A program made the translations under genes and the position numbers. The notes beneath the pieces are model-generated. The model had not been told where the DNA came from, made no database searches, and saw only the letters and a list, made by a program, of their open reading frames with translations. Below, one piece after another: positions 9,680 through 49,081 of a stretch of 64,000 nucleotides of DNA. Position 1 is the stretch's first letter. Each line of letters opens with the position of its first letter. The DNA is from Alphaproteobacteria bacterium (GTDB lineage Bacteria > Pseudomonadota > Alphaproteobacteria > UBA828): contig CBDEFM010000002.1 in assembly GCA_965237415.1 (NCBI GenBank), positions 1,472,001-1,536,000 of the forward strand, given 5' to 3'.

Positions 9680-9880
9680 CTAGCCCGCACCATGGTGCGA
9701 TGCACGGCGTGCGCCGCCTACGCCACAGTTTCGCGTCATGCGGTGCACGAACGAGCGGACCAAGGCGGGCTCGATAGTCGGCAATTCTCACCGGGTCGCG
9801 CGCCGTATCTGGCCCGCGTGTCCCGCGGAATCTCACTTATCCCACTTAATCCCACTTAATCCCGGCGAATCCCGCTTCAA
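9680..9880. repeat. Dispersed non-coding module: ACCATGGTGCG-TGCAC motif plus phased TCCC array; inverted homolog of 31401-31629
   Basis: ACCATGGTGCGATGCACGGCGTGCGC...TGCGGTGCACGAACGAGCGG and TCCCGCGGAATCTCACTTATCCCACTTAATCCCACTTAATCCCGGCGAATCCCGCTTCAA match the reverse complements of 31561-31623 and 31401-31450. Confidence 0.85.
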
Positions 9881-10137
9881 AAAAGGGGGTTTCCCGCGTG
9901 CGTCGTGCTCCCTCACCCGGCGTTCGTTGCGCGCGTACCGGCCCGGCGCTACAGTCGGCCCGCCGATGCGGCCTTGGCGGGCCGTGCGACCGCCCGAACG
10001 ACGGAACGGTCGGTCCCCGTCGGCGAACGGTCGAGGCGCCGTGGAGGTGCGGGAGCGCTCGCTCCAGTCGGAAATCCGCCTCATGCATTGAAGAATGAGG
10101 AGGAGGCGCGATCCCCGCGGGGATCGCGGCGCACGAC

Positions 10138-27931: not shown

Positions 27932-29074
27932 CGGCCGCGGCACGCTTGCCGACTTGAGCTGACCGCAGGCCGCCTGGATGTCCCGGCCGCGCGGCGCCCT
28001 CACCGGCGCCGCGTAGCCGGCGCGGTTGACGATCGCGGCGAACCGCTCGATGGCTTCCGGCGACGAGCACTCGTAGGGCGCTCCCGGCCAGGCATTGAAC
28101 GGGATCAGATTGAGCTTGGCCGGGATGCCGGCGATCAGGCGGATCAGCGCGCGGGCATCCGCCTCCGAGTCGTTCACGCCCTTCAGCATCACGTATTCGA
28201 AGGTGATCCGGCGCGCGTTGCTGGCTCCGGGGTAGCGGCGGCAGGCGTCGAGCAGGGCCGCGATCGGGTACTTGCGGTTGATCGGGACCAGCTCGTCGCG
28301 CAAGTCGTCGCGAACCGCATGGAGCGAGACGGCGAGGCCGACGCCGAGCTCGGCGCCGCAGCGCTCGATGATCGGCACGACACCGGCGGTGGAGAGCGTG
28401 ATCCGCCGGCGCGAGAGCGCGATCCCCTCCGGGTCCATCACGATGCGGAGCGCCTTGGCGACGTTGTCGTAGTTGAAGAGCGGCTCCCCCATACCCATCA
28501 TCACGATGTTGGAGAGCATGCGCGGCCCGCGCGGCGACGGCCATTCGCCGTACGAATCGCGGGCCACCAGGAACTGGGCGACGATCTCGCCGGCATCCAG
28601 ATTGCGCACCATGCGCTGGGTGCCGGTGTGGCAAAAGGTGCAGGAAAGCGTGCAGCCCACCTGGGAGGAGATGCAGAGCGCGCCGCGATCCTCCTCCGGG
28701 ATGTAGACGGATTCCACCTCGCGGCCATCGGCGAAGCGCAGCAGCCACTTTCGCGTCCCGTCCGCCGAACGCTGCTCCGTCGCCGTCTCGGGGCGTGCCA
28801 GGGTATAGCGCTCGGCGAGCGCAGCGCGCAGCACGCCGGCGATGGTCGTCATCGTGCCGAATTCGACGGCGCCCCGGTGGTAAATCCAGTGCCAGAGCTG
28901 CTTGGCCCGCATCCGGATCCGCTCCGGCGGCACGCCGACGGCCTGCAGGCGCTCGGCAAGCTCGTCGCGCGTGAGCCCGATCAGGCTCTCGCGTTCGTCC
29001 TTTACGGAATTCGTCTCGCTTGCTGCGCCGGCGCCGGACCGGGAACCTGCGCCGGGAGCCCGGTCTACGGGCAC
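27890..29074 (-). CDS. rlmN: 23S rRNA m2A2503 / tRNA methyltransferase RlmN
   Basis: [52 protein letters not shown]. Start uncertain. Confidence 0.96.
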
Positions 29075-29601
29075 GCCCTGACGATGGCGTCGTGAATCTT
29101 GGTAAAGCCGATGAGGGAGTACGAGTCCTCGGAATAGGTATTCTTGAGCGAGACCCCGCGCACCTTCAACTCGCGACCGCGAATCATGGCCTTGACGACG
29201 GTGGCGTCCGCCCCCTCGTCACTCACCCACGCGTGCTCCCCATGGGTCAGGTCGAAGCTGAAATTGCGCCCGTCGATGGTCACCTTCACGGGCTTCCCCT
29301 CGGGATAGGGGTATCCGGAGGTCACGCTCACCTCTTCGGTCGTCCTGCTGCCCCGGCGCCGGGTCACCATGATGTTGGGCGTGCCGCGCCGCTTGTAGTT
29401 GCCCGTGGATTTCGCGGGCTTCGCGTGCATGTAGCAGACCTTGCTACCGTCGCTCACGTAGCTGTGGGACCTCCAATTGGAGTTCTCGGCCAAGGGTTCA
29501 GGCTTGACCTGCGCGTCAGCGTCCTGCGGCCCCGCGAGGAGCGAGATACAAAGAAACGCAGGGACGAGGAGAGCCGGCGTCGCGGCTATGCGTCGAATCA
29601 T
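29065..29601 (-). CDS. Invasion-associated locus B (IalB)-like exported protein
   Basis: Signal peptide; KVCYM...P...[29 protein letters not shown], terminal C. Usual upstream neighbour of rlmN in alphaproteobacteria. Confidence 0.8.
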
Positions 29602-29795
29602 GGCCTCTCAGAACCTATGGGCGACGGCGGCGCAGCATAGCGAAAATGATACTCAGCCGCCAGTACCTCTCCCCATACAGTCGGGTCACGATTTTGACAA
29701 CGGCCGCCCGCCTGGACGCGACGCAGGCCGTGACGGCGGTGAGAATATCGGGCGAAGCGGTTTACGGCGCGCGCCGTGCAGGCCATATAGAGAGC

Positions 29796-30410
29796 ATGGC
29801 GATACTCAAGATCGCGCGCATGGGCCACCCCGTGCTGGGCCGCCCCGCATTGCCGGTCGCCGACCCGGCTGCGCCTGCGATCGCGCGTCTGATCGAGGAC
29901 ATGGTCGATACGCTGGTGGACGCGAACGGGGCCGGCCTGGCGGCGCCCCAGGTGCACGTGCCCCTGCGGCTCGTGCTCTTCCGCGTGCCGCCCGGCCGCG
30001 AGACGGCTCGGGAGGAGAGCAACGGCGCGGAGAGCGACGGCGCGGAGAGCGACGGCGGGGAGAGCGACGGCGGGGAGAGCGACCCGGCGGCGGCGCCCGC
30101 CCTCGAGTCGCCCACGGTCCTGATCAACCCCGAGATCGAGCCGATCGGCGAGAGCATGGTGGAGGACATGGAGGCCTGTCTCTCGCTCCCCGGTCTCGCC
30201 GGGATGGTTCCGCGCCACGACCACATTCGCTATCGCTGGACCGATACCGAAGGCCGGGCCCACGAATGCGAGGCATGGGGCTTCCACGCGCGCGTGGTCC
30301 AGCACGAATGCGATCACCTGGACGGCATCCTCTACCCGATGCGGATGACGGACCTCTCCACCCTCGCCTTCACGAGCGAGCTCGGCCGCTCGCAGGCGGC
30401 GGAGGACTGA
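29796..30410 (+). CDS. def: Peptide deformylase
   Basis: MAILKIARMGHPVL, GAGLAAPQV, EACLSLPG, QHECDHLDGILY. Confidence 0.95.
   Translation: MAILKIARMGHPVLGRPALPVADPAAPAIARLIEDMVDTLVDANGAGLAAPQVHVPLRLVLFRVPPGRETAREESNGAESDGAESDGGESDGGESDPAAAPALESPTVLINPEIEPIGESMVEDMEACLSLPGLAGMVPRHDHIRYRWTDTEGRAHECEAWGFHARVVQHECDHLDGILYPMRMTDLSTLAFTSELGRSQAAED
30015..30083 (+). repeat. In-frame 15-bp tandem repeat (about 4.6 copies) inside def
   Basis: GAGAGC(A/G)ACGGCG(C/G)G repeats encode ESNGA-ESDGA-ESDGG-ESDGG-ESD. Confidence 0.9.
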
Positions 30411-30413
30411 GCC

Positions 30414-31103
30414 GTGTGGCGAGCGCTCCCGGCTGACGAGACCCGCGACCGGGTTCTGCTGGCAGCCCTGCCCCATGTGCCCTTCGACGGCTGGTCCGAG
30501 GTGGCGCTTACGGCGGCCGCCGTCGATCTCGACCTCGAGCCCGGGGAGGCGCGCCAGGCCTTCCCCGGCGGCCCGGTTGCGCTCGTCGCCTATCACGCGG
30601 CCTACGCCGACCGCTGCATGGAGGAGGCGCTGAAGGAGAGCGATCTGGCGGCGATGCGGGTGCGGGAGCGCATCGCCCGCGCCGTGCGTCTCAGGCTCGA
30701 ACAGAACGCGGCACACCGGGAGGCGATCCGCGCGGCGCTGCCGATCCTGGCGCAGCCGGCGAACGGCGGCCACGCGCTCTATTCCCTCTATCGTACCGTG
30801 GACACGATCTGGTTCGCGGTCGGCGACAAGTCGACCGATTTCGGCTTCTACACCAAGCGCGCTTTGCTCGCAGGCGTCTACCTCTCCACCCTGCTCTATT
30901 GGCTGAACGACGGCTCGGAGGGCGCGCAGGCGACCTGGGCCTTCCTCGACCGCCGCATCGCGGACGTCATGCGCATCCAGACGACGCAGGCGCGCTTCGC
31001 CCGCTTCCGCCCGCCCGGCATGGAGCTGCTGCGGCGCCTGCGAAAGGCCGCACGGGCCGCCGCGGACCCCATGCACGGCCGAGGCCCGCAGAGCCCGTCC
31101 TAG
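30414..31103 (+). CDS. COQ9 family protein
   Basis: LLAALPHVPFDGWS, RVRERIARAVRLRL, DTIWFAVGDKSTDFGFYTKRALL, TWAFLDRRIADVM. Confidence 0.92.
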   Translation: MWRALPADETRDRVLLAALPHVPFDGWSEVALTAAAVDLDLEPGEARQAFPGGPVALVAYHAAYADRCMEEALKESDLAAMRVRERIARAVRLRLEQNAAHREAIRAALPILAQPANGGHALYSLYRTVDTIWFAVGDKSTDFGFYTKRALLAGVYLSTLLYWLNDGSEGAQATWAFLDRRIADVMRIQTTQARFARFRPPGMELLRRLRKAARAAADPMHGRGPQSPS

Positions 31104-31177
31104 CATCCCGTTCCCTAAGCTCGTTTGCATGTTGTCGGGCCGGTGCGCGGTCTCTCCGACCGACCGCCCCCACACGC

Positions 31178-31289
31178 CGTCATGCCCGGACTCGTTCCGG
31201 GCATCTCCAGCAGCCTGGCCCGCCGGACGCTGGGCAAACACATGGATGGCCGGATACCCGGAACGAGTCCGGGCTGTCCGTCCATGACG
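31178..31289. repeat. CGTC-tagged REP-like palindromic dimer
   Basis: CGTCATGCCCGGACTCGTTCCGGGCATC ... GATGGCCGGATACCCGGAACGAGTCCGGGC...CATGACG: two inverted units around a spacer. Confidence 0.75.
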
Positions 31290-31400
31290 TGTCGGGGGCG
31301 CCGCGCACACGGATAGAAACTTCTCGAACACGGCACTAGCCCGCAAATCTTACCTCGGTCGCGGTCCGGCTCCTCGTCCCACCTCGGACAGAATTCAGAT

Positions 31401-31657
31401 TCAAAGCGGGATTCGGTGGGATTAAGTGGGATAAGTGGGATTCCGTGGGACAGGGTTGCGCACGCCCGAGTCGCCCGCGCCTGAAAGGTCGCGGGCGCGC
31501 CAGATAGCGTCGTACGCACGGAATCGGGTCGCTCACGACCGTTCATCCTTTCTGCCATGGGCCCGCTCGTTCGTGCACTGCAAGGCGCAAGCGTGGCGCG
31601 CACGCCGTGCACCGCACCATGGTCCGGGTCGCGCGGGCCTGAAAGGTCGCGGGCGCG
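31401..31657. repeat. Non-coding module downstream of the DUF3486-like gene: phased GGGA array, two 21-bp direct repeats, GTGCAC-CGC-ACCATGGT motif
   Basis: AAAGCGGGATTCGGTGGGATTAAGTGGGATAAGTGGGATTCCGTGGGA; GCCTGAAAGGTCGCGGGCGCG at 31479 and 31637; motif at 31607-31623. Confidence 0.85.
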
Positions 31658-31709
31658 GAATCAAGAGTCGAGCGCGTGTCCGGCTGCGGCGGAGGCGGAG
31701 CCCCCGGCC

Positions 31710-32591
31710 TCACCCTGGCCCGCTCCATTCCGAGGGGCAGAAGGGAGGGTCGGTCGGCCAGAGTCGGCCTTCCGCCTCCCGCCGCCTCAGCTCGGCATCC
31801 CGCGCCCTGTGCGCGTCCCATTCATCCTGCGCCCCGGGCGCGTCCGCATCCTGCGCCCCGTCGGCGGCAGGTGACTCGGGCGTGGAGTCCGGCGGAGTGA
31901 CGGGAGAGTCCGCGGGAGGAGCCTCGGCCCACCCGGATGCCGGCGGCGGCTTTATACGCCCAGGGAACAAGTGCCCCTCGAGAGCCCGGCGGACGGTTTC
32001 GACCCGTTCGGCATGCGTCATACCGGCCGCGCGCGCGGCCGGTCCGGCGTGCGCGGCGGCGGCATCGGCTGCCGCCTGCTCGCGCTTGATGCGGAGCCTG
32101 TCGGCGCTTTCGATACGGTAGAGCGCGAGGGCGAGGCGGCCGAGGTCCTCGGTCGGCACCGGCTCCTCGTGCGCGCCGAGCTCGGCCATCGTGCGGAGCG
32201 CCAGCGTTCGCAGGGTCTCGATCGCGATGAGGGCGCTAAGCCCCTCGGCGCGGGGGTCGCGGGCGCGCGTCCATTCCTCGGCAAAGCGAACGGTCTCGCG
32301 CTGCAGGCAGATCAGGCCGTCCATGCGCTCGGCCCAGCGGCCCTCGGCGGGTCGCGCACGCGCGCAGCGTCGTGCGCGCGGGATCAAAGGCGAACGGTCA
32401 CCGTCGCCCGCGCGGACGCGCGACACGATCTCGTCCATGGTGGCGCCGTCCTCGATGGCTGCGGCCACGGCGTCCTGGATCGAGGTCGGCAGCGGCTCGT
32501 CCGCTGAGCCCCCGCCCAGCTCACCTGCCGTGCCCCGCGTGCTCTCGCACTGCGTCGCGCGGATACGCGCGCGGGAAGATGATCGACCCAT
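31710..32591 (-). CDS. Mu gp27-like / DUF3486 family protein with a low-complexity C-terminal extension
   Basis: MGRSSS..., HTH-like LPTSIQDAVAAAIEDGATMDEIV, AEEWTRA..EG..ALIAIETLRTLALRTM, DLGRLALALYRIESA..RE resemble DUF3486. Recognised by eye; no search run. Confidence 0.65.
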   Translation of the reverse strand: MGRSSSRARIRATQCESTRGTAGELGGGSADEPLPTSIQDAVAAAIEDGATMDEIVSRVRAGDGDRSPLIPRARRCARARPAEGRWAERMDGLICLQRETVRFAEEWTRARDPRAEGLSALIAIETLRTLALRTMAELGAHEEPVPTEDLGRLALALYRIESADRLRIKREQAAADAAAAHAGPAARAAGMTHAERVETVRRALEGHLFPGRIKPPPASGWAEAPPADSPVTPPDSTPESPAADGAQDADAPGAQDEWDAHRARDAELRRREAEGRLWPTDPPFCPSEWSGPG

Positions 32592-32698
32592 CGCGCGATC
32601 CTGGCGCAGGCACCACGCGCGGTGCACCGCACCATGGTTCTGGGCGTTGAGCGGGGCGGGCCGTCAGGCTCCAACGACCCGCGCTAGCATTACACCGC

Positions 32699-33886
32699 TC
32701 AGGCGAGAAGTTCGGCCAACAGGCTGTTGAGGAGCGGTCGGCCGGCGGCGGTCGCGCTGAGCCTCCCGTCCCGGCGCTCCAGATAGCCGGCGTCCATGAG
32801 GCGGGCGAGGCCCGCGCGATCGATCACACGGTCGGGATCGCAGCCCGTGCGCTCCCTCAGATGCGTCTCCGACACGCCCTCGGCAAGGCGGAGGCCCATC
32901 ATCAGCATCTCGCGCGCCTGTTCGTGCGTGTCGAGTGAGCGCGTCTCGGCGGTGCCGTGGCCGGCGCCTTCGACGGCAGCAAGCCAGGTTTCCGGCCCCG
33001 CGTGCTGGCGCACCGTCTGCCGCCCGCATCCTGCCGGCGCGACTCGGCCGTGGGCGCCCGGCCCGATGCCCACGTAGTCGTCGTAACGCCAGTAGGCCAG
33101 GTTATGGCGGCTGGCGTTCCCGCCGCGCTCGTGGTTGGAGACCTCGTAGGCCGCGAAACCCGCCGCCGCCGTCATCTCTTGGGTGAGGTCATAGAGCACG
33201 CGCGCCGTGTCGTCGTCGGGCAGCGCGAACGCGCCGTCCCGTTCCAGCCGCCAGAAGGGCGTGCCCTTCTCGACGGTGAGCTGATAGAGCGAGAGATGGT
33301 CGTCGGCGAACGCCAGCGCCTCGGCCAGCTCGGCACGCCAGGCATCGACGGTCTGGCCGGGCCTTGCGTAGATCAGGTCGAAGGAGCTTCGCGGCATGAT
33401 GCGCTGCGCCATTGCGACCGCTTGCCGCGCCTCCGCCGCGTCGTGCCCGCGCCCGAGGAAAGTGAGCGCGCGGTCGTCGAGCGCCTGCACGCCGAGCGAC
33501 ACCCGGTTCACGCCGGCCGCGCGGAAGTCTTCGAGGCGTGCTGCCTCGGTCGAGGTCGGGTTGGCTTCGAGGGTGATCTCGGCGCCCGCCGCGAGCGTCC
33601 ACCGCGCCGCCGCCCGGTCGATCACCGCGGCCGCGGTCTCGGGCGGCATCAGCGAGGGCGTGCCCCCGCCGAAGAACATGCTGGTGACCTGCGCCCCCGG
33701 CAGCAGCGCGGAAAAATGGTCGAGCTCGCGCAGCAGCGCGCCCCGCCACCGCGCCTGATCGACGCTCTCCCTGACATGGCTGTTGAAGTCGCAATAGGGG
33801 CACTTGGAGAGGCAGAACGGCCAGTGCACGTAGAGGGCGAGCCCGGTGGGCGCTCCAGGTGAAGACGGTTCGGGCTCGCCACTCAC
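32699..33886 (-). CDS. hemW: Radical SAM heme chaperone HemW (HemN-like)
   Basis: [51 protein letters not shown]; GTGA overlap with rdgB. Confidence 0.93.
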
Positions 33887-34500
33887 GACCGGGCCGGCCG
33901 TAAGGCCGCCGCCAGTTGCGCGAAGGCCCGCGCCCTGTGGGTCAGCGGCTGCTTCTCCTCCGGCAACATCTCGCCGAAGGTGCGCGCGTGGCCATCGGGG
34001 ACGAAGATCGGGTCGTAGCCGAAGCCGTGTCGGCCGCGGGGCGGAAAGGCGAGTGTCCCATCCACGCGCCCCTCGACCGTCTCGCAATGACCGTCCGGCC
34101 AGCCGAGAGAAAGCGCACAGACGAAATAGGCCGCCGCGCCAACGGTCTGGGATCCGCGCGCCGCAAGTTCCGTCTCGATACGGGCCATCGCCACGCGAAA
34201 ATCCTTCCCCGGCCCCGCCCAGCGGGCGGAATAGATGCCGGGCGCGCCATCGAGCGCAGGCACCACGAGGCCGGAATCGTCGGCAAGGGCCGGCTCGCCG
34301 CTGGCCTCAGCCGCGGCGCGGGCCTTGAGCGCCGCGTTCGCGCCGAACGTCTCCCCCGTCTCCTCGGGCTCCGCGAGGCCAAGCGCCGCGGCACCCACGG
34401 CCTCGATGCCGAGGGGCCTAAGCAACGCCGCGATTTCGCGGGCCTTGCCGGCGTTATGGCTCGCCACGATCAGGCGCGCCGCCGCGAGACGACGGGCCAT
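33883..34500 (-). CDS. rdgB: RdgB/HAM1 non-canonical purine NTP pyrophosphatase
   Basis: [52 protein letters not shown]. Confidence 0.95.
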
Positions 34501-34505
34501 CGGGC

Positions 34506-35228
34506 CTAGCGTCCTCCGGCGAGGGCGTCCCGCTGCAGGGCGAACAGTCGCTCGGCGCCTGAGCGGGCGAGGCCCAGCATGGCGATCAGCTGCGCCTCGC
34601 TGAAGGGGTCGCCCTCCGCCGTGCCCTGGACCTCGACGATCCCGCCGCCGGCGGTGAGTACGAAGTTCGCGTCGGCGTCGGCCGTGCTGTCCTCGGCATA
34701 GTCGAGGTCGAGCACCGCCTCGCCGCCCACGATCCCGCAGCTCACGGCGGCGACCTGGTCGGTGAGCGGCAGGCTCCCGATGACGCCGCGTGCAACGAGG
34801 CCGTCGAGCGCCACGTGGAGCGCCACATAGGCGCCGGTGATGGCTGCCGTGCGGGTGCCGCCATCGGCCTGGATGACGTCGCAGTCGAGGGTGATCTGGC
34901 GCTCCCCGAGCGCTTCCAGGTCGGTCACGGCGCGGAGCGAGCGCCCGATGAGGCGCTGGATCTCCTGCGTGCGCCCGCCCTGGCGCCCGCGCGCGGCCTC
35001 GCGAGCGGTCCGCGACCCGGTCGAGCGCGGCAGCATGCCGTATTCGCCGGTCACCCAGCCCCGCCCCTTGTTGCGCAGGAAGGGCGGCACGCGATCCTCC
35101 AGGCTTGCCGTGCACAGCACCTGCGTGTCGCCGAAGCGAACCAGGCAGGAGCCCTCGGCGTGCTTGTTCACGCCCGGCTCCAGCTTTACCTCGCGCAACT
35201 CGTCGGCTGTACGGCCGGATGGTCGCAT
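34506..35228 (-). CDS. rph: Ribonuclease PH
   Basis: [53 protein letters not shown]. Confidence 0.97.
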
Positions 35229-48405: not shown

Positions 48406-48652
48406 TGGAGTGGGCCCCCTGGGTCGGACAGGCGGACTGAAATGATTTGACCGGTGCGTCGGGCATTCGAAGGATCGACGCCCATAGCACCGCACCGCAC
48501 CGACAGCATCGCCTTCAAGCGCCAGGTCGTTCAGGAATATCTAGCGGGCGAGACCCTCCACGATCTGGCACGTCGCCACGACCTCTCCCGCACCCTGATC
48601 CGGCTCTGGGTCGACAAGTACGAGGCCGGCACCTTCGACGAGGACGCCGAGG
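48406..48652 (+). mobile_element. IS3-family remnant (left end plus partial orfA)
   Basis: IRL-like TGGAGTGGGCCCCCTGGGTCGGACAG; OrfA HTH SIAFKRQVVQEYLAGETLHDLARRHDLSRTLIRLWVDKYEAG; no intact start and no orfB. Confidence 0.75.
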
Positions 48653-49081
48653 CGGACAGCACGACATTGCGTTCCAGCGCGGCGATGCTGCGCTCGACCC
48701 TGCCCATCGCGTCGAGGTAAGCGCACATCGTCGTCACGGGTTTGTCGTCGTCGTGGCCACAGAAGCTCTCAGCGAGCGTAACGCGTGAGACGCCAAGCCC
48801 GAGGATGAAGCGGCTATCATAGAAATTGCTCAGCGAATCATGCCCGGAGATGGTGGTGAGGGCATCGCGCGCACAAATGTTCGCAATGCCGGCTGCCGCG
48901 CGCAATCGATCGGTTTCCGCCAGGATGAAGCCGCTGTAATTGAAGGTCTCGTAGCCAATTCCTTTCGGGTACCGGAGCATATCGTAGCCGAGACGCTCGA
49001 CGCCCTGCGCCAGTTCCGCGACATCGCTTCCGGAGAGCACGTCAGGTAAGAACCGAACGCCGGTCTGTCGATCTCCTTCAT
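48653..49081 (-). pseudogene. Truncated, frameshifted LLM-class (luciferase-like) oxidoreductase
   Basis: ELAQGVERLGY, GIANICARD, RFILGLGVS, KPVTTMCAYLDAM; 5' frameshift near 49040; 3' end replaced by the IS remnant. Confidence 0.75.

Follow-up and report, generated by a model that had tools for sequence, protein, structure and literature searches.

How does a single phage packaging gene come to lie between two housekeeping genes? The question is raised by a 64,000-nt stretch of the genome of an alphaproteobacterium of the UBA828 lineage (contig CBDEFM010000002.1, positions 1,472,001 to 1,536,000), the whole of which we call the window. An open reading frame (ORF) on its minus strand, at 31710-32591, encodes a relative of Mu gp27, a small terminase (TerS), and is located between COQ9 and hemW. 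The initial annotation took it for a stand-alone gene accompanied by a palindromic motif and a repeat array of its own. Comparison with the rest of the genome and with 20 genomes of the same genus suggested a different arrangement. [quoted passage not shown] We also favour, with less confidence, a broader reading, in which this non-autonomous element would carry a phage late promoter, accompanied in some copies by a TerS gene, and would serve a Mu-derived set of particle genes.

A repeat family that carries gp27-like genes

The ORF encodes 293 amino acids, the stop codon being included in its coordinates. The protein matched the Pfam family PF11985 (Phage_Mu_Gp27) with an E-value of 5.8e-10 and a score of 40.3 bits, above the cut-off of 28. 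The match ran from residue 34 to residue 206 of the protein and from position 4 to position 171 of the 173-position model, which places the protein in this family. A match to the PHROG family phrog_426, 'terminase small subunit' (4.1e-10), pointed the same way, verifying the Mu gp27/DUF3486 identity that had been proposed. The gene was not solitary, however. The genome (two contigs, 4.75 Mb, 66.7% G+C) contained 10 PF11985 matches, and Mu-type large terminase (TerL), portal, protease-capsid, tail, lysis and Mor/C genes were present elsewhere in it. Within the window itself the gene was the only recognisable phage gene, as the initial annotation had said: none of 45 other ORFs selected by G+C content at third codon positions (GC3) belonged to a phage Pfam family.

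Upstream of the ORF lies a 17-mer (32622-32638, minus strand) that consists of the dyad ACCATGGT plus GTGCAC. Allowing up to two mismatches, we found this 17-mer at 74 sites in the genome, while its reversed control was found at none. These sites, with the conserved block that follows them, are referred to as heads. In 58 of the 74, the head was followed within 2.5 kb by an array of TCCC-containing units on the same strand, and the distance between the two sorted the copies into classes. Forty-eight copies, with 85-479 nt between head and array, had no gene. Four copies with 648-660 nt carried gp27 genes that we assigned to subfamily A (about 86 bits), and five with 1142-1189 nt, including the window copy, carried genes of subfamily B (28-41 bits). 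One copy had a distance of 909 nt. Eleven arrays lacked a head within 2.5 kb, and 16 heads lacked an array. A gp27-type gene was thus carried by about 10 of roughly 75 element copies, most of which were short and gene-less, with only head and array.

Among gene-bearing copies, paralog similarity began at or just upstream of the 17-mer head, and in subfamily B it ended ~1.23-1.30 kb past the head. The tails stopped sharply before CTAG, CTAA, TTAG and similar tetramers, and the flanks beyond were unrelated. The last ~45 nt of the tail proved to be a terminal repeat, with 169 profile matches in the genome and 41 inward-facing pairs. Sixteen of these pairs were MITEs of 266-274 nt, with TA/CTAG flanks and an unrelated interior that had neither head nor array; an example is C2:588861-589131. 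Tails that reached the end of the element carried the right repeat, which they have in common with these ~270-nt MITEs. With ~58-66 copies, the gp27-like gene as the only ORF, and an empty spacer between COQ9 and hemW in relatives, the family has several features of a TA-targeting MITE.

In the window, the element occupied 31340-32683 on the minus strand, with CTAG on both sides. The outer CTAG, next to hemW at 32684-32687, is presumably the target site with its TA duplication, as family ends carry YTAR or CTAG. It is followed by a degenerate left terminal region (32639-32683, minus strand), which in its inner half shows homology to left ends elsewhere in the family, and then by the head and the ORF. 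The right terminal inverted repeat is at 31340-31389 (minus strand), and the inner CTAG at 31336-31339 marks the end of the element. The initial annotation had emphasized the heptamer CTAGCAT around the whole insert. It occurred in the window only at 31100 and 32684, and both copies were indeed at insert junctions; however, two copies against 2.67 expected in 64 kb are not above chance. The meaningful part is CTAG, which is also present at the inner junction, and the pair is best read as a CTAG target site.

Across the family, a manual count of repeat pairs placed the dinucleotide TA in register at the left end in 24 of 36 cases and at the right end in 30 of 36. The outermost base co-varied between both ends, and one copy had a non-canonical CA on both sides. 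TA makes up only 1.46% of positions, and CTAG is ~8-fold under-represented in this genome (1854 occurrences versus ~14,600 expected); the copies therefore abut stop codons. We propose that the element ends in imperfect terminal inverted repeats of ~50 nt and would target TA for insertion, in most cases a TA inside CTAG or next to a stop codon, in the manner of IS630/Tc1-mariner-type insertion sequences (IS). Its cargo would begin with the head. In all copies the head or, where present, the gp27 gene would be followed by GC hairpins, then by the phased array of TCCC units and finally by the right terminal repeat. In a DNA sequencing run, available as contigs only, the bins of the array, head and ORF were far deeper (as summed depth) than those of the genes on either side, as expected if the repeats have many copies in that community.

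One subfamily B copy, at C2:1799.7-1805.7 kb, was split into a head with the N-terminal 79 codons and a C-terminal part with the tail. The insert between the two parts was ~4.7 kb long and contained IS110-family and IS21-like transposases.

Empty sites in related genomes

The COQ9 gene (30414-31103, plus strand; PF08511, 7.5e-30) and a HemN/HemW-type radical SAM gene (32699-34087, minus strand) are convergent, with the gp27-like ORF between them, and Pfam confirmed both neighbours. The suggested insertion at this site was supported by comparison of empty and filled loci. In 12 of the 20 genus-mates, the stop codons of COQ9 and hemW were only ~10-30 nt apart, so the 1.58-kb filling is lineage-specific. 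The remaining eight had other content or other neighbours at COQ9 or hemW. A mobile, repeat-associated element, one of the possibilities raised initially, was borne out by the family of copies bounded by terminal inverted repeats (TIRs).

Several observations weigh against assigning the locus to a TA-targeting element. A clear full-length left repeat was present in few of the 58 head-array copies, and it was degenerate in the window copy. A loose left-repeat pattern matched 11 of the 58, several of them doubtful. In many head-array copies the left end consisted of YTAR followed by a few nucleotides of the repeat, or of a GC hairpin repeat. Of 41 array-bearing tails, only 16 had TA in register beyond the right end, a number that rises to ~20 when an offset of one is allowed. 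The empty COQ9-hemW sites came from species with only ~80-85% COQ9 identity, and among the genus-mates no empty/filled pair from a close relative was found for this subfamily. In the closest relative, G004, the region downstream of COQ9 had other insertions, with no hemW within 7.7 kb. A second copy in the window (~9680-9900) was also filled at the orthologous site in G004 and is therefore an older insertion. In addition, no transposase with matching terminal repeats was found among the 41 repeat pairs and 11 DDE_3 loci of this genome. In favour of a CTAG target, the five copies of the genome's own IS630 are themselves bordered by CTAG, although they have other terminal repeats.

A predicted late promoter at the head of the element

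The exact 17-mer occurred twice in the window on the minus strand, at 31607-31623 and 32622-32638, and once more with a single mismatch at 9689-9705. The expected number was 0.03, and none of 100 shuffles reached three. The exact direct repeat on both sides of the gene, as initially described, was therefore real, but the motif was not a cognate site private to this gene, since its 74 sites include those of Mu-type late genes. Conservation among the copies extended from about -6 to +50 around the 17-mer. The head had a conserved layout: 18 nt separate the 17-mer dyad from a -10-like hexamer, for which CAGGAT is the commonest sequence, and another 6 nt separate the hexamer from an ATG. An nAnnnT hexamer occupied positions 35-40 in 62 of 74 heads, the A at its position 2 and the T at its position 6 being the best-kept letters. 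The ATG was at positions 47-49 in 52 heads, and hexamer and ATG were found together in 50. Upstream of the window ORF, CAGGAT occupies 32598-32603 (minus strand), at a distance of 18 nt from the 17-mer and 6 nt from the ATG. The 17-mer at 31607-31623 belongs to a degenerate internal head, in which both hexamer and ATG have been lost.

The head also preceded other phage genes in this genome, with the ATG always 30 nt (once 31 nt) after the 17-mer. These were a DUF5675/phrog_1501 gene followed by a holin-like gene, a stand-alone Mu-type portal gene, and a head maturation protease gene followed by the cement and major capsid genes. A degenerate copy of a 16-bp variant of the palindrome lay upstream of the large terminase gene. 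In six species, the region upstream of the portal gene was conserved only in the motif and the hexamer-ATG block.

In phage Mu, according to an excerpt of PMC2582627, late promoters have -10 hexamers but no -35, and the activator C binds a 16-bp dyad centred at -43.5. When transcription was assumed to start at the conserved ATG, the hexamer of the head fell at -12 to -7 and the centre of the dyad at -43.5; the agreement with the reported C site follows from this assumed start. As far as that excerpt goes, the head resembles the late promoters of Mu (Plys, PI, PP, Pmom) in having a recognisable -10 and no good -35, as well as a 16-bp dyad at -43.5, again with the start assumed, and a Mor/C-family gene is encoded in this genome. 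Together with the sites before lysis, portal and protease-capsid genes, this geometry argues that the head is likely a Mor/C-type phage late promoter and the 17-mer its predicted operator. The protein bound there would most likely be the conserved, putative late activator of the Mor/C family. The ATG would then be the first base of a leaderless mRNA. Such a transcript would be unlike those of Mu late promoters. The head motif also differs from Mu's in sequence, and it is copied ~74 times, mostly outside any prophage.

Some results do not favour this assignment. A sigma-70 consensus scan of 31050-32750 revealed neither a promoter nor a terminator, although an activator-dependent promoter would look alike. 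Promoter activity and activator binding are predicted from sequence features, and the metatranscriptome data were uninformative: three runs, available as contigs only, touched the ORF weakly, and contigs cannot show starts or levels.

Mu-type genes elsewhere in the genome

If the head is a late promoter, which genes would it control? The gp27-like ORF was not directly upstream of TerL or portal genes, its neighbours being COQ9 and hemW. The TerL and portal genes were located on the same contig at a distance of ~275 kb; TerL had no TerS gene as a neighbour, and no further TerS candidate turned up. Genes for a CI-like S24 repressor, a Gam-like protein, GemA and a putative late activator of the Mor/C family (C2:1212934-1213278; PF08765, 26.5 bits; phrog_836, 1.2e-13) were found ~17 kb from the portal gene. 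Between these repressor, Gam, GemA and Mor/C genes there was no transposase; the genome was not searched specifically for MuA/MuB families. The order metE-like gene, TerL, RTX ORF, portal and pyc was the same in this genome and in G004, whereas in G014 and G009 TerL and portal were adjacent, with no RTX ORF between them. Amino-acid identity with the relatives was 86-95% for the portal and 91-98% for pyc. Judging from these sequences, the Mu-type set looks like a vertically kept set of particle genes, either similar to a gene transfer agent (GTA) or a grounded prophage.

The scattered Mu-type portal, lysis and protease-capsid genes would form one co-regulated set under the same head. Because the TerL-portal set has no adjacent TerS gene, the dispersed gp27-like genes would be its likely source of TerS. 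This arrangement, in which a non-autonomous element brings a phage late promoter and sometimes a TerS gene to a Mu-derived particle set, is the interpretation that we prefer. If it is correct, a miniature transposon has taken up a phage regulatory switch and a packaging gene and spread dozens of copies through the genome, and a grounded Mu-like phage survives as a scattered, co-regulated gene set. One activator could control ~74 promoters together.

The components co-occurred across the genus. Seventeen of 20 genus-mates had 17-mer sites (at most one mismatch, 9-65 sites each), and the same 17 had PF11985 matches (1-15 each). A Mu portal was found in 18 and a Mor homolog in 15; 14 of the 15 Mor homologs were 77-97% identical. 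In six genomes the Mor gene was 17-23 kb from the portal gene on the same contig. Outside the genus, the 17-mer was absent from all 20 genomes searched. G012 and G016 lacked all four features, and G015 had only a partial portal match. These three were also the most distant genus-mates by COQ9 identity, so that the pattern may reflect a single gain, and the related genomes are not independent observations. G018 did not fit the expected coupling of promoter and gene, as it had ~30 heads and only one partial PF11985 match.

Two genuine Mu-like prophages were found in relatives (G002 and G006), one of them with a MuA-type transposase. In both, the late activator and lysis genes were followed by TerS, TerL and portal genes in the usual order. 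A 24-bp perfect palindrome centred on CCATGG directly followed the late-activator gene, and TACCAT or CACAAT came 18 nt after it, the same spacing as in the heads, with the lysis, TerS, TerL and portal genes beyond. The position of the palindrome, right after the activator gene and before the lysis and head genes, is as in Mu. The operator of these prophages differed from the 17-mer in its outer half.

The presence of such prophages in the genus, with a related but non-identical palindrome, is one point in favour of a role in phage interference, another of the roles initially considered. Copies of TerS or of the operator could then act as decoys against infecting Mu-like phages that redirect packaging or titrate the late activator, for which ~74 operator copies might suffice. 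We regard this as highly improbable. Neither gp27 subfamily matched a PADLOC model, and the prophage operator is not the same in its outer half. Furthermore, the motif is common to conserved structural genes resident in the host, and co-regulation therefore fits better than defence.

The Mu-type loci on the contig were scattered over 1208.5-1213.3 kb (lysis, repressor, Gam, GemA and Mor/C genes), 1226.5-1231 kb (TerL and portal), 24.6-29 kb (protease, cement and capsid) and 1121-1132 kb (a tail cluster). The ORF with RTX calcium-binding repeats that lies between TerL and portal is at C2:1228074-1229426 and is also present in G004. The tail cluster was siphovirus-like, with a short tape-measure ORF of 272 aa. 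C2:1-25793 was a 99.96% identical inverted duplicate of C2:1132014-1157806 and ended inside the head-protease ORF. Beyond the duplicated segment, one copy continues into the cement and capsid genes and the other into tail genes. The 25.8-kb duplicate may be an artefact of assembly; otherwise it represents a true inverted repeat or a rearrangement within the phage-like cluster.

Conservation of the gp27-like proteins

The two gp27 subfamilies differed in their presumed DNA-binding part. Subfamily A has kept a typical helix-turn-helix, and the window protein was 45% identical to it over 158 residues. In the window protein, 12 additional residues, rich in Arg, interrupt the helix-turn-helix where the recognition helix would be, which counts against TerS function. 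This insertion and the last ~40 residues were nearly invariant across 32 subfamily B homologs, which were 79-90% identical to the window protein; the Pro-rich linker varied among them. The C-terminal residues hardly changed even among homologs with 70-88% overall identity. At E <= 0.001, 516 homologs were found among 8000 candidates scored, and the best 120 were 70-100% identical, none of them with a name.

The structural comparison that had been proposed as a check of the family gave a mixed outcome. The PF11985 similarity was found, but Foldseek detected no relative of the window protein in the PDB at E <= 0.001, and a profile search of PDB sequences gave 0 matches. The AlphaFold2 model was all-helical, with long helices at 86-189, but was poor (mean pLDDT 55.6, pTM 0.27). 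A predicted complex of TerL with residues 246-293 of the window protein scored 0.00, which is no verdict and counts neither way.

Like phage TerS proteins such as Mu gp27, the protein gave a family match spanning almost the whole Pfam model and a helical body with long central helices, the latter from the poor model. The extreme C-terminus is conserved in subfamily B, as it is in those TerS proteins whose C-terminus binds TerL, so far as the partial accounts of these go. In gp1, the small terminase of the Rhodobacter capsulatus GTA (RcGTA), the DNA-binding part is altered, according to an excerpt of PMC6854486; in the window protein it is altered by the insertion. In contrast to phage TerS, the gene here is away from TerL, has 1-15 matches in each genome that contains it and forms part of a mobile element. 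On this evidence the gp27-like proteins may act as TerS, but we consider this prediction somewhat less than even.

Could the genes instead be decaying passengers? A fragment of a Mu-like late operon might have been captured once between MITE ends and amplified as selfish debris, with fossil promoters. The ratio of nonsynonymous to synonymous substitution rates (dN/dS) in the paralog cores was 0.31-1.01. Values up to ~1 would suit such decay and indicate weak constraint, which is unfavourable to a functional TerS; the ratio was nevertheless below 1 in 15 of 16 pairs. Subfamily A ORFs run into the array with divergent ends, as debris might, yet all nine full-length gp27-like copies keep open frames, and the C-terminal motif of subfamily B is nearly invariant. 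Most copies have no gene, and one was split by the IS110 and IS21-like insertions. In the short copies, the frame from ATG to array was not kept (frames 0, 2 and 1 in 21, 13 and 7 of 41 copies). The head geometry, by comparison, was kept at 50 of 74 sites, and TerL and portal are conserved in a genome where no other TerS candidate was seen. We therefore consider debris unlikely and retain the interpretation that the element serves the particle genes. A conserved small ORF in the short copies was rejected, because the frame between ATG and array was not maintained.

The phased TCCC array

The array in the window (31406-31452, minus strand) has five TCCC(A/G)C units spaced at 9-10 bp. On the plus strand, its GGGAT/GGGAC units start at 31408, 31418, 31428, 31437 and 31447, with spacings of 10, 10, 9 and 10. 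The phased array noticed initially was thus real, but not special to this gene; ~66 copies of the element, mostly gene-less, have it as a conserved subterminal block. A profile of the array region gave 82 matches in the genome. Arrays of at least three units numbered 69, against 4 in the control, and contained 3 to 10 units each. The array is the element's subterminal block beside the right terminal inverted repeat, from which it is separated in the window by an AT-rich spacer (31390-31405). Replication iterons, DnaA or CtrA boxes and a CsrA sponge were considered from consensus sequences and set aside, as arrays of this kind are confined to the repeat family. An origin from prophage ends or a packaging (pac) site was not seen in the prophage stretches that we fetched; the true prophage ends may lie outside them.

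The position of the array next to a TerS-like gene raises the question of whether it is itself a pac site. TerS rings would bind the 10-bp-phased TCCC units, and the chromosome would have ~66 packaging starts for the Mu-derived particles. TerS rings have been proposed to wrap ~100 bp of DNA in the consulted portion of PMC6854486. In both gene-bearing subfamilies the TerS gene is immediately followed by the array, whose units recur every 9-10 bp; 66 of the 69 arrays belong to this element family, and TerL has no adjacent TerS. However, no array-like cluster or tail-model match was present in four stretches of the two genuine Mu-like prophages, including ~5-8 kb on the early side. The gaps between chromosomal arrays had a coefficient of variation of 1.05, versus 0.98 +/- 0.12 for random placement, showing no even spacing, and there was no strand bias of the arrays on the chromosome. 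The unit number of 3-10 is that of a slippage-prone tandem repeat, and subfamilies A and B have no distinct array types. A pac function is therefore a doubtful explanation of the arrays.

An extended form of this idea is more doubtful still. The genome may hold a GTA-like, Mu-derived system with an outsourced packaging-initiation module, in which promoter, TerS and pac-like array were seeded by the MITE in ~60-75 copies. If this were so, firing of Mor/C would lead to packaging from many fixed chromosomal points. The arrangement would be a hard-wired mimic of the dispersed Mu copies that arise by lytic replicative transposition, and it would allow genome-wide, site-initiated gene transfer.

The array might also have nothing to do with TerS. 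Together with the TCCC motifs of the inner terminal repeats, it could provide sites for the transposase or an accessory protein, like the subterminal sites of Mu or Tn7. Motifs of the type TCCC(G/A) occur forward in the inner left repeat, in reverse in the inner right repeat, and in the array, which always abuts the right repeat and is kept in gene-less copies. On the other hand, the 266-274-nt MITEs have the same terminal repeats and no array, and the array is therefore not needed for amplifying that repeat. We know of no IS630-type element that needs a one-sided array, and no transposase was found in the searches above. A role in transposition is thus possible but not probable. For the element as a whole, we continue to prefer a MITE-like carrier of a late promoter, whatever the array contributes.

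Comparison with known systems

Among known elements, the closest are IS630/Tc1-mariner-type MITEs of bacteria, such as the Correia elements of Neisseria, and mobile insertion cassettes (MICs). The family described here has in common with both the TIRs, the TA/CTAG ends, the lack of a transposase and the tens of copies per genome. The copies also lie in short intergenic spacers, and some carry a passenger gene and promoter. It differs from them in its cargo, a putative phage late promoter with a small terminase gene, in the one-sided phased array, in the often truncated left repeat and in that no parent IS was found. Among the matches listed by a search of the literature on promoters and passenger genes in MITEs or IS630 elements, nothing relevant was apparent by title.

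RcGTA has a multi-locus genome of HK97-like origin. As in such multi-locus GTAs, the particle genes here are scattered over several loci with one shared regulatory motif, the synteny is conserved genus-wide, and no replication or transposition genes were seen beside the early genes. Unlike RcGTA, the set is of Mu type, and it could equally be a grounded defective prophage. Among the papers listed by a literature search, none described a Mu-derived GTA, as far as titles and the openings of abstracts tell, and the sole literature match for DUF3486 was a halovirus genome paper.

The small terminase decides which DNA is packaged and is hard to find in gene transfer agents. If the preferred reading holds, the family would offer a concrete and testable example of the way in which a small terminase is acquired and controlled in particle systems domesticated from phages. 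It also calls for caution in annotation: a single 'terminase small subunit' gene flanked by housekeeping genes could be the cargo of a repeat element, not a prophage remnant or a defence gene.

Other features of the locus

Two GC hairpin repeats resembling repetitive extragenic palindromic (REP) sequences lie between the gene and the array. The first (31625-31664) has at least 35 genomic copies by BLASTN cover, and the second (31467-31506) was recognised by repeat comparison. A GC-rich palindromic stretch within the ORF (32348-32387, minus strand) encodes the Arg-rich 12-residue insertion and is 75% like the hairpin repeat at 31625-31664. It appears to be a hairpin repeat lying in-frame inside the gp27-like ORF, a situation reminiscent of palindromic elements that invade coding regions.

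The rest of the insert is filled by a different repeat (31104-31335), which contains a 22-nt inverted pair (31184-31205 and 31253-31274) and has ~35 genomic matches. The stop codon of COQ9 lies inside the CTAG at 31100-31103, and this CTAG together with 31104-31335 marks the second repeat. A repeat of the same type directly followed the tail of the gp27 element in several other copies.

Neither tRNA nor tmRNA genes were found at the locus, and no Rfam family was found in 29000-35000, with one sub-threshold match elsewhere. The gene-less head-array copy at ~9680-9900 comes right after the TAG stop codon of a SnoaL-like gene and has no right terminal repeat. Upstream of a peptide deformylase gene, at 29717-29753, there is an isolated remnant of the terminal repeat. 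Finally, a small ORF at 48454-48717 encodes an IS3-type transposase helix-turn-helix (HTH_Tnp_1).

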